NCBI GenBank assembly: GCA_021399345.1
Contig: JAAFKI010000145.1
Span: 1-25,937, forward strand
Source: Candidatus Heimdallarchaeota archaeon
GTDB lineage: Archaea > Asgardarchaeota > Heimdallarchaeia > Heimdallarchaeales > Heimdallarchaeaceae
Length of the DNA: 25,937 nt
Direction: 5' to 3'
A program made the translations under genes and the position numbers. Numbering within the stretch: position 1 is the first letter of the stretch; the number at the start of each line of letters is the position of its first letter. Of this stretch, positions 23,016-25,937 are shown one piece after another. The notes beneath the pieces were generated by a model, which worked only from the letters and a program-made list of their open reading frames with translations, was not told the DNA's origin and made no database searches.

Positions 23016-24995
23016 CTATAGTTTTACTATTATTTTTCGAATGAGAATTATAATAACCGGTAATAAGATTAAGAATCCAATACTTCCAAACAAAACAGGA
23101 TAAAAGATTTCAGGTAAGAAATCTCTAGGACACTCAGGTATATGATATCCAGAAGCTTCAAACCATTCAAGTGATTTATCCAAATCATAATCATATTTTA
23201 TAATATTATCATAATAGTAGTAACTGGTTTTTGGATAAACAACACTATGAGAGATAGAATATTCTCCATCGTGTAGTTTTGTATTCATCTCCTCTCTATC
23301 TATACCATAACAGATTGCCTTTCTTACACCAACTCCTAAATTGTATTCTTCTTTTCCTGGAACATCATAATAGATACGATTATTTTCTGCTCCAATAAAT
23401 GGTCTTCTAAAATTGAAGAATAAGATTTCTTGTTCTTGTTGCAGTAGACCCTGGACTTCAAATCTGCAATCTGATTGAATCTGTTTCCGTTCAAATGGCA
23501 ATAGATTTAAAGCATTAGTAAGATCAATTCTACCTTTCTTAAATTCCTCTAATTCAGCTGAAAGATCAGGTATTACTTTGATATTAAAAGTGTCAATAAA
23601 TGGCTTCAATCCTAATTTTCCATCAATTGCACCTTTACCGTACCAGCCATCCCATCTCTTCAGAACAGTTATTGAATTTTTGATAGAATAATCCAAACTA
23701 TATTTACCACAACCAAATGCGGAAGTACTGTAAGCTACCCATTGTGGAGTGAGTTCAATTCCAGGATATAATCCAGTAGTCTGGATACCACCCATTGTTC
23801 CCCATACATAAGGATTGGTGGAATTCAAGAAGAACTCTGGTAGAACAAACCATGGTCTACTTATACTTGCCCACATGTCTGCATATGGTTCAGCTTCAGG
23901 AGTATCTGGGTCACCGTCAATATGAATGTGGAATGATAAATCATCTCCAGGATCAACATAACAATCTGACATCCATTCATGATAACTGGTACTTTCGCTA
24001 GTAATGTTACTAGCCCAAGCGAGATAAGTAAATACAGCATCGTGTGCAGTAACTTGATGACTGGAACCAGTACTTGGTAAACCATCTTTCAATCCGACTA
24101 GTAAGTCTTCACTTGTTAATGGACCTGAGTTAGCATCTCTGTCAGTGGTATCATAAGATGGGTTCCAATAGACATCATCCATCATCCAGAACTGATAATG
24201 GGTTTCATCTATTTGTTCCCATTCATAGACAAGACCAGTTTTTAAAGGAGCAAAACCAGGACTTATTTGGATAATAGGTTCCAATAAAAGACTTGTAACA
24301 AATGAACTTGATCCATCATCTGAGAATAAGGGGTTTAGATCTTTCCAGTTTGCATCTGCAATATTGAACTCTTTTATATCTTCTTGTCCTGTGTGTAGAC
24401 CGTCATATCTCATATATGGAAGGGAATCTACTATTCCCCATTCAGCATTATACCCTTTAGTATTTGACCAAACTGCTTGATAATACTTGGGTGAAAACAA
24501 TGGGAGATAAGGTATAATTTTATCCATTACAAGCTGCTGATATTCGTAGTAGAGAGTTTTTTTTAGTTCAAAATCTACAGTATTGTGAATTTCTTCAAGT
24601 AGTTGATTACTTTGATTTACATAAGGTATATCCGTGTCTATCCCAAAAATATTTAGTGAACCAGAAAGAGTAAACAAATCATCTGGTGAAGGAGGAGTAG
24701 GCCATGGTCCAAAGGATTTTACAGCCTTTATCAAGCCTAAATCATAATTATGAGTTTCTAACAAAACACCCCAAAAAACTGTCCATTCTTCTATTTTCAA
24801 AGAAACTTCTATTCCAATATCCTTCAAATAATCAGCTATATATAAAGCATAATCTGGTCTAATACCTCCTCCATTAGTTTTAATTGATATTTTTGCAATT
24901 GGTTCATGATAAACAAATGAGTTTACTAAGAATTTTGAGCTACTAGAAATCATTAAAATTACAATTAATGAAACTAATATTCTCTTCTTTCTCAT
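23016..24995 (-). CDS. Family-5 ABC solute-binding protein, C-terminally membrane anchored (paralogue of 9057-10982)
   Basis: Shares ADANWKDLNP, KTGLV, TAHDAVFT, LPEFFLNST, SAFG.GK, VRKAICYGIDR, YDYDLDK; signal peptide and C-terminal transmembrane segment. ATG 24995 is preferred over TTG 25001. Confidence 0.88.
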   Translation of the reverse strand: MRKKRILVSLIVILMISSSSKFLVNSFVYHEPIAKISIKTNGGGIRPDYALYIADYLKDIGIEVSLKIEEWTVFWGVLLETHNYDLGLIKAVKSFGPWPTPPSPDDLFTLSGSLNIFGIDTDIPYVNQSNQLLEEIHNTVDFELKKTLYYEYQQLVMDKIIPYLPLFSPKYYQAVWSNTKGYNAEWGIVDSLPYMRYDGLHTGQEDIKEFNIADANWKDLNPLFSDDGSSSFVTSLLLEPIIQISPGFAPLKTGLVYEWEQIDETHYQFWMMDDVYWNPSYDTTDRDANSGPLTSEDLLVGLKDGLPSTGSSHQVTAHDAVFTYLAWASNITSESTSYHEWMSDCYVDPGDDLSFHIHIDGDPDTPEAEPYADMWASISRPWFVLPEFFLNSTNPYVWGTMGGIQTTGLYPGIELTPQWVAYSTSAFGCGKYSLDYSIKNSITVLKRWDGWYGKGAIDGKLGLKPFIDTFNIKVIPDLSAELEEFKKGRIDLTNALNLLPFERKQIQSDCRFEVQGLLQQEQEILFFNFRRPFIGAENNRIYYDVPGKEEYNLGVGVRKAICYGIDREEMNTKLHDGEYSISHSVVYPKTSYYYYDNIIKYDYDLDKSLEWFEASGYHIPECPRDFLPEIFYPVLFGSIGFLILLPVIIILIRKIIVKL

Positions 24996-25090
24996 AAACA
25001 AACCACTAATAATATCACAACAGGCATTTATAATGGTTTTTCAAAAATCTAATTTCCATTCAACTTCTTTTTCAGAACTTAAATCGACTA

Positions 25091-25243
25091 TTTTATATAG
25101 TTAGTAAAGGGGTTGAGCTTAACACAGTATAGGAAGACATACTAAAATTAAGTGTGAAGGTTGATAGGAATTCTTTTTCAGGTTCGGAATGGGTCTTTCT
25201 AATTCACTATTCTACTAAATACTGCTAAAAAAGGTGAATATTC
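25091..25243 (+). promoter_or_regulatory. TATA box, putative ~125-nt structured 5' leader and GGTGA SD site
   Basis: TTTTATAT at 25091-25098; stems at 25118-25152 and 25164-25210; AGGTGA at 25232-25237 before ATG 25244. Confidence 0.5.
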
Positions 25244-25937
25244 ATGTCAAAAGATAGAGCGGTAAGAAGCTCTCAAAAATTCAAACCAACAAATAGATCT
25301 AAAAAACAAGTAAGTTTTAAATCAAGAGAAGGTTCCAAATTTAAATCTGGAACTAAACCAAAAAATCGTTCTAGAGATAGTGGGAAGGAAGAAACAAGAA
25401 TTAGTCGCTCTGGGAGTAGACCAAGTTATCGATCGTCTAACAGATCACCTAGTAGGTCATCCAATAGATATGATTCTGGAAACAGGAGATCATCAGGTGG
25501 AAGACCATCAGACAGGAGATCATCAGGTGGAAGACCATCAGACAGGAGATCATCCGAGAGGGGAAACGTTGAACTTCACACAGCAACTTGTGCTAAGTGT
25601 AAGAAAGAAACTCAGGTACCTTTCAAACCAACAGGATCTAAGCCTGTTTATTGTCGAGAATGTTTTCAAGATCAAAAACCACAAGATAGATCTAGACAAG
25701 AAAGAAGATCTCCTAGTCGCTCTGGGAGTAGATCAAATTACCAGTCTTCCAATAGGTCATCTAATAGATATGATTCTGGAAGTAGAAGACCATCAGAGAG
25801 GGGAAACGTTGAACTTCATACTGCAATTTGTGCTAAGTGTAAGAAAGAAACTCAAGTACCTTTCAAACCAACAGGATCTAAGCCTGTTTATTGTCGAGAA
25901 TGTTTTCAAGATCAAAAACCACAAGATAGATCTAGAC
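25244..25937 (+). CDS. Arg/Ser-rich protein with tandem CxxC-x17-CxxC zinc-binding domains (3' partial)
   Basis: Manually translated, open to the window end: MSKDRAVRSS...RSGSRPSYRSSNRSPSRSS...ELHTATCAKCKKETQVPFKPTGSKPVYCRECF, with the domain present twice. Absent from the ORF track because there is no stop codon. Confidence 0.92.
   Translation, partial: MSKDRAVRSSQKFKPTNRSKKQVSFKSREGSKFKSGTKPKNRSRDSGKEETRISRSGSRPSYRSSNRSPSRSSNRYDSGNRRSSGGRPSDRRSSGGRPSDRRSSERGNVELHTATCAKCKKETQVPFKPTGSKPVYCRECFQDQKPQDRSRQERRSPSRSGSRSNYQSSNRSSNRYDSGSRRPSERGNVELHTAICAKCKKETQVPFKPTGSKPVYCRECFQDQKPQDRSR
25482..25554 (+). repeat. 30-bp coding tandem repeat (~2.4 copies, RRSSGGRPSD)
   Basis: ACAGGAGATCATCAGGTGGAAGACCATCAG at 25482 and 25512, with a partial copy at 25542. 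Confidence 0.92.
25556..25937 (+). repeat. Direct repeat of the zinc-finger exon-like unit, 240-bp period
   Basis: 25556-25697 versus 25796-25937: 142 bp with 4 mismatches by eye. The window ends inside the second copy. Confidence 0.92.

Follow-up and report, generated by a model that had tools for sequence, protein, structure and literature searches.

RNA thermometers and autoregulatory operators are structured 5′ UTRs that regulate their genes in cis. The archaeal leader described here shares with them a weak, U-rich hairpin containing G-U pairs, a long leader and, next to it, a gene for a putative nucleic-acid-binding protein; unlike them, its hairpin does not cover the ribosome-binding site, and it is known only from one Heimdallarchaeaceae-group genus and from its sequence alone. 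Archaeal mRNAs are also targeted by antisense RNAs acting in trans, as exemplified by sRNA162 of Methanosarcina mazei (PMC3510493) and RNA-257 of Sulfolobus solfataricus (PMC3674436). As summarised there, both systems, like the present locus, have an abundant RNA with a long stretch complementary to an archaeal mRNA (to its 3′ UTR in the case of RNA-257). Their regulatory partner, however, is a dedicated sRNA that was studied experimentally, whereas here it would be an rRNA, with a predicted pairing restricted to a single clade.

A second comparison concerns RNAs that are encoded with their halves swapped. The SRP RNA of Thermoproteus tenax is permuted and circularised (Plagens et al. 2015, PMC4731332), and brown algae have a permuted mitochondrial 5S rRNA (Valach et al. 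2014, PMC4267664). The host 5S rRNA gene described below resembles the T. tenax SRP RNA gene in its swapped halves, in the location of its new ends in a tRNA-splicing-type motif and in a cut-and-join reaction that would restore the native sequence; it differs in that the product is 5S rRNA, that a hairpin insert of ~30 nt precedes the 3′ half and that ligation is predicted. With the brown-algal molecule it shares native ends closed by a hairpin, but in the algal molecule the ends have moved to the three-way junction and the permutation persists in the product, whereas the host gene is broken in helix III and flanked by a splicing-type motif. In closed Heimdallarchaeum genomes, 5S genes could not be predicted (PMC8813620).

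The zinc-ribbon gene and its promoter

We analysed a window of 25,937 nt, comprising positions 1 to 25,937 of contig JAAFKI010000145.1 from a Candidatus Heimdallarchaeota archaeon. A plus-strand gene at 25244–25937, whose ORF is cut by the contig end, encodes an Arg/Ser-rich product with repeated CxxC-x17-CxxC zinc ribbons (TIGR04272, PF23477). It scored 120 bits, above both curated cut-offs (36 and 27), and the remainder of the ORF is probably carried by another contig of this genome (G000:C21:1–490), which has a 60-nt overlap with the window contig. Full-length orthologs have three to four ribbons; one ortholog contains 16% Arg and 15% Ser, and 30 RS/SR dipeptides were counted in one ortholog. 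The protein is SR-like, with up to four zinc ribbons on Arg/Ser-rich linkers, and two paralogs are present in some genomes. Its nearest named relatives are found in Ca. Heimdallarchaeota and Heimdallarchaeaceae genomes, AB_125 among them. The amino acid composition marks it as a putative RNA-binding protein. CxxC-x17-CxxC proteins of M. mazei bind zinc, and the portions of their description used here give no function and make no mention of 5S rRNA (PMC12704099). As portrayed there, these proteins have the domain in common with the host protein and are small and single-domain, whereas the host protein carries three to four copies on its Arg/Ser-rich linkers.

Several features surround this gene. 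Within it, a second, shifted frame is open for 186 codons (25380–25937, plus strand) and is probably a shadow frame that reflects the repetitiveness of the coding sequence. The minus strand at 23016–25001 encodes a divergent family-5 solute-binding protein, in which Pfam covers residues 316–620 only and normally late motifs lie near the N-terminus, consistent with a permuted binding protein. Elsewhere in the genome (G000:C83:8690–8880), a small single-domain CxxC-x17-CxxC gene has its own conserved leader of ~120 nt, which is common to loci L042, L044–L046 and L054 and is unrelated to 5S rRNA.

We read a predicted archaeal TATA box of the zinc-ribbon gene at 25092–25099 (plus strand), and an AT-rich box lies at the same distance in all orthologs for which the region is assembled. 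Its position would place the transcription start near 25121–25123, giving a leader of ~122 nt as counted from this predicted start. The initial annotation had proposed that two leader segments, a 9-mer at 25115–25123 and a 14-mer at 25181–25194, lie in antisense order to conserved 5S rRNA sequence, about 50–55 nt apart. Both strings are present at these positions, but their spacing is 57 nt. The 9-mer ends ~25 nt downstream of the TATA box, at the predicted transcription start, and is complementary to the host 5S over only 6 contiguous nt; its 13 occurrences in the genome, against 15.8 expected, are at chance level, and its last bases differ in most orthologs. Gene copies of a short type (L069, L070, L074 and L076, in G008, G029, G018 and G005, respectively) lack the entire long leader as well as the N-terminal part of the protein; immediately after the same promoter and motif they have an in-frame GTG, as in leaderless mRNAs. 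This layout supports the start site and indicates that the 9-mer belongs to it. The 9-mer is, moreover, retained in gene copies that have no 5S-matching site. The two-piece antisense design was rejected, its upstream arm being part of the transcription start. Judging from the position of the promoter, the 9-mer probably lies outside the transcribed leader and the 5S match around the 14-mer within it.

The 5S match and the permuted 5S gene

The one other occurrence of the 14-mer in the genome, on contig C135, identified the host 5S rRNA gene, which lies outside the window on the minus strand (G000:C135 ~50324–50200, within L001:6191–6370 and G000:C135:50190–50369). Against this 5S, the 14-mer extends to an exact antisense match of 22 out of 22 nt (25175–25196, plus strand), stronger than had been claimed. 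It spans loop C and the 3′ strand of helix III, the last nucleotides of the permuted 5S gene, and is the best match of the 5S genome-wide (BLAST E 4e-5). When the 5S sequence was shuffled, a match of at least 14 nt was present somewhere in the genome for 1534 of the 2000 shuffles, so that 14 nt alone is ordinary, and a match of at least 21 nt for none; the Markov expectation for the 22-mer is 5e-6. Thus, the 22-mer is non-random for one genome. Chance becomes less remote across ~250,000 windows, where, by a rough estimate, 0.01–0.1 such cases would be expected for 5S alone, and near-matches (21 nt with up to two mismatches) arose in 19 of 150 shuffles (13%).

The leader ranked first among 2571 host upstream regions in predicted duplex formation with 5S (−39.4 kcal/mol against a mean of −11.2), 19 of which reached −21 kcal/mol or better. 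In the folding model, the 21–22 bp duplex has an energy of −39 kcal/mol, or about −27 kcal/mol once both RNAs have been opened.

The locus does not look like a remnant of a 5S gene. Rfam gives no 5S on either strand of the region, and the RF00001 search of the window found neither a full nor a half 5S fold at the site on the minus strand, in agreement with the initial annotation, which had held that the minus strand does not fold as a 5S gene. The identity of the segment to the 3′ end of a stable-RNA gene could nevertheless point to an att integration scar duplicating the 5S 3′ end, and 3′ ends of stable-RNA genes are the usual place for att duplications. However, no second half is present, in every copy the promoter, leader and gene are homologous and adjoin without interruption, and viral contigs are without the match. 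A decayed 5S gene or an att scar was therefore largely refuted, and we regard either as extremely improbable.

The host 5S gene is circularly permuted: its back half comes first, with model positions 51–115 preceding 1–51, the native ends are joined by a short loop, and a hairpin insert of ~30 nt precedes the 3′ half. It adjoins a tRNA-Ser gene and is the only 5S gene detected in the host, where the RF00001 genome search missed it because of the permutation. A permuted 5S was matched in 29 of 30 family genomes. Two single-contig genomes (G027 and G030; L026, L027, L232 and L233) carry two permuted copies each and no canonical 5S above the cut-off, so that the permutation is not an assembly error. 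The flanks of L026 and L027 are unlike those in the host genus and have no separate outer motif ahead of the insert. Our literature searches returned no description of this layout.

The flanks of the permuted gene form a predicted bulge-helix-bulge motif, with an outer helix of 10 bp, a central helix of 4 bp and 3-nt bulges, in which compensatory changes were seen in other genera (L025, L029 and L031; judged visually in the alignment). Cleavage and ligation in the manner of tRNA splicing are predicted to restore the canonical 5S junction, possibly with removal of the ~30-nt hairpin insert before joining, and the RNA is probably processed into a ring. The 22-nt match covers the predicted cut end. 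It also covers the central-helix strand and the bulge of the motif, as would suit a leader that serves as a trans-acting sponge or chaperone for the 5S precursor, pairing with the 3′ strand so as to block the splicing-type motif. Such a role is very improbable: the permuted 5S is family-wide and the match is found in four genomes, and an mRNA leader is far scarcer than pre-5S, which we counted against it.

Folding and conservation of the leader

The leader is a structured 5′ UTR hitherto undescribed, for which an Rfam search gave no family below an E value of 6. In the RNAalifold consensus, supported by pair counts, 25125–25130 pairs with 25219–25224 to form a basal helix, P1 (87.5% of cells paired), and 25165–25201 forms a conserved U-rich hairpin with outer (25165–25170/25196–25201) and inner (25176–25179/25186–25189) helices and a variable loop (25180–25185). 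The hairpin helices are ~93% paired over 16 copies. Taken together, the internal helices had 90.6% of their cells paired over these 16 copies, compared with 35–56% in slid controls, and five pairs showed two-sided change. Covariation for this internal fold was modest (12–18 of 500 shuffles), and the single leader folds no better than its shuffled derivatives (z +1.2). The 22-mer covers the inner 5′ arm, the loop and the 3′ arm of the hairpin. The 14-mer had been placed in the hairpin loop, which holds for 5 of its nucleotides (25181–25185); the other 9 are in the 3′ arm. A Shine-Dalgarno-like element, read from the sequence, lies at 25232–25237, 35 nt downstream of the 22-mer, and its core GTG is invariant in the alignment.

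We recovered 23 long-leader copies of the gene, all from one Heimdallarchaeaceae-group genus. The 5S match is perfect in four of them, each from a different species: the host (G000), G009, G013 and G024. These and G011 form one nested clade (99/99; 94/94 in a second tree), and the 5S-locus tree recovered the same clade plus G018, in which a long-leader copy was not found. In G011 (L088, near 1590–1610), a clean deletion of ~33 nt has removed the hairpin together with the 5S match and left the gene start intact. The other 18 long-leader copies have kept the internal hairpin, with the 5S pairing broken: twelve copies with a known 5S form 12–18 Watson-Crick pairs out of 21, and the match is likewise imperfect in six further copies from public assemblies. 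Judged from its place on the trees, the perfect match appears to be a derived state.

The pattern of substitutions follows the hairpin. The five Gs of the 3′ arm all face C or U in 5S; inside the hairpin, two of them face C and three face U. G-to-A changes in this arm, counted with G001 left out (misregistered) and L228 added by hand, fell 13 times at G-U hairpin pairs and never at G-C pairs, although these are kin sequences and not independent events. We found no change in the 3′ arm that keeps the 5S pairing yet breaks the hairpin. In the 6 genomes whose 5S has U for C, none of the 8 leader copies shows the compensating A. Conservation of the 22-mer was 0.86, compared with 0.83 for the rest of the leader, and was lowest in the loop (0.72). 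Within the clade, its invariance (22 of 22 positions) was not above that of the flanks (46 of 48 adjacent positions; Fisher p 0.2 against the whole leader). One U-to-C change of the clade costs a hairpin pair (pair 65–70) and converts a G-U pair with 5S to G-C; the same C is present in L230, which has no good 5S match. Judged as an antisense target, the leader thus shows complementarity beyond chance and no conserved pairing with compensatory changes (perfect in 4 of 23 copies). Conservation and covariation in orthologous leaders, which had been named as a check of the idea, break down outside one clade of five species.

Beyond the orthologs, a family-wide mechanism found no support. Among 103 leaders of CxxC-x17-CxxC genes from bacteria and archaea, the motif was present in two Heimdall copies of the same gene, with 0.7 expected, and leaders of other such genes, from the same lineage or from other archaea and bacteria, were without it. 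A search of 400 Asgard genomes with a 20-nt pattern, which is blind to lineages whose 5S differs at those positions, detected exact non-5S copies in the four clade leaders alone. Metagenome scans added no clade members.

These data bear on the proposal, made in the initial annotation, that the leader senses 5S rRNA. In a clade-specific form of it, free or unligated host 5S would be a regulatory RNA for the SR-like zinc-ribbon protein: loop C of 5S would meet the hairpin loop and zip up to 21–22 bp, and expression would shift if 50S assembly or 5S ligation lags. The leader has the strongest 5S duplex of all 2571 upstream regions, with a favourable net energy after opening of both RNAs; within the site, the loop shows the least pairing; the site is unchanged in four species, and its match takes in the 3′ end at which the permuted pre-5S is predicted to be cut; and the downstream product is basic and Arg/Ser-rich. 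On the other hand, pairing is lost in the 18 other copies without covariation, the site is deleted in the sister G011, and the motif is missing from other CxxC-x17-CxxC leaders. The site lies 35 nt from the ribosome-binding site of the ribbon gene, with no clear predicted switch, and in the folding model, blocking the 22-mer gave no clear opening of this ribosome-binding site. We also counted against sensing that uL5 and uL18 cover loop C and helix III of 5S shortly after it is made, and our literature searches gave no precedent for 5S rRNA as a direct antisense regulator of an mRNA. We consider such a sensor unlikely.

Origin and meaning of the match

Since the perfect match is found in one small branch and the hairpin is conserved for its own folding, we consider it likely that the hairpin of this 5′ UTR folds in cis and that its 5S match is unselected, a by-product and not a ribosome sensor. 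The leader mRNA would fold on itself through the basal helix and the weak U-rich hairpin, and, because this intramolecular fold is the part that is conserved, it most likely works in cis. The fold probably tunes translation or stability of the mRNA, possibly by melting or by binding of the gene's own basic product. Genus-wide, the hairpin is only loosely like the antisense of 5S loop C, and in the nested clade a perfect match appears to have arisen once, via at least two changes. We infer that there is no selection on the 5S pairing, the perfect state being most likely the outcome of drift on a near-match or of one-off copying from the 5S gene or RNA, two origins that we regard as roughly equally likely. 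Several observations count against the unselected reading: the rarity of the 22-mer in one genome, its unchanged presence in four species, the hairpin pair that the U-to-C change of the clade has cost, and the modest covariation and single-leader z value of the fold.

Within this preferred reading, copying of the segment from 5S, with no 5S-related function, is a possibility that we hold only tentatively. The hairpin could have been seeded long ago by an antisense copy, or a near-match could have been perfected recently through gene conversion or RNA-templated repair. The exact tract stops where the linear 5S intermediate is predicted to have its cut end, and the host flanks align weakly, on both sides, to the antisense of the re-joined 5S (combined p 0.04–0.05, post hoc), fitting the mature junction better than the genomic trailer. 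This signal is marginal, however, and is weaker in relatives; a match extending across the re-joined junction, which the relatives do not have, was for its part rejected as marginal. A tract of 21 nt is also short for recombination, and, the perfect state being nested, an old copy would imply either that the match was made perfect a second time or that it was lost many times in parallel.

If the match is unselected, which we hold to be the more likely case, the cis-folding hairpin would be an undescribed but ordinary structured leader, and it would warn that a long match to rRNA can come about within a hairpin; if the copying variant is true, it would record 5S sequence moving into a leader. 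If the pairing were functional, 5S rRNA would act as a direct antisense regulator of an mRNA, a role for which we found no precedent, and gene control in the closest archaeal relatives of eukaryotes would be tied to ribosome assembly. The permuted 5S gene matters more than the leader match itself: a family-wide permutation of 5S would explain why 5S prediction failed in the closed Heimdallarchaeum genomes (PMC8813620).
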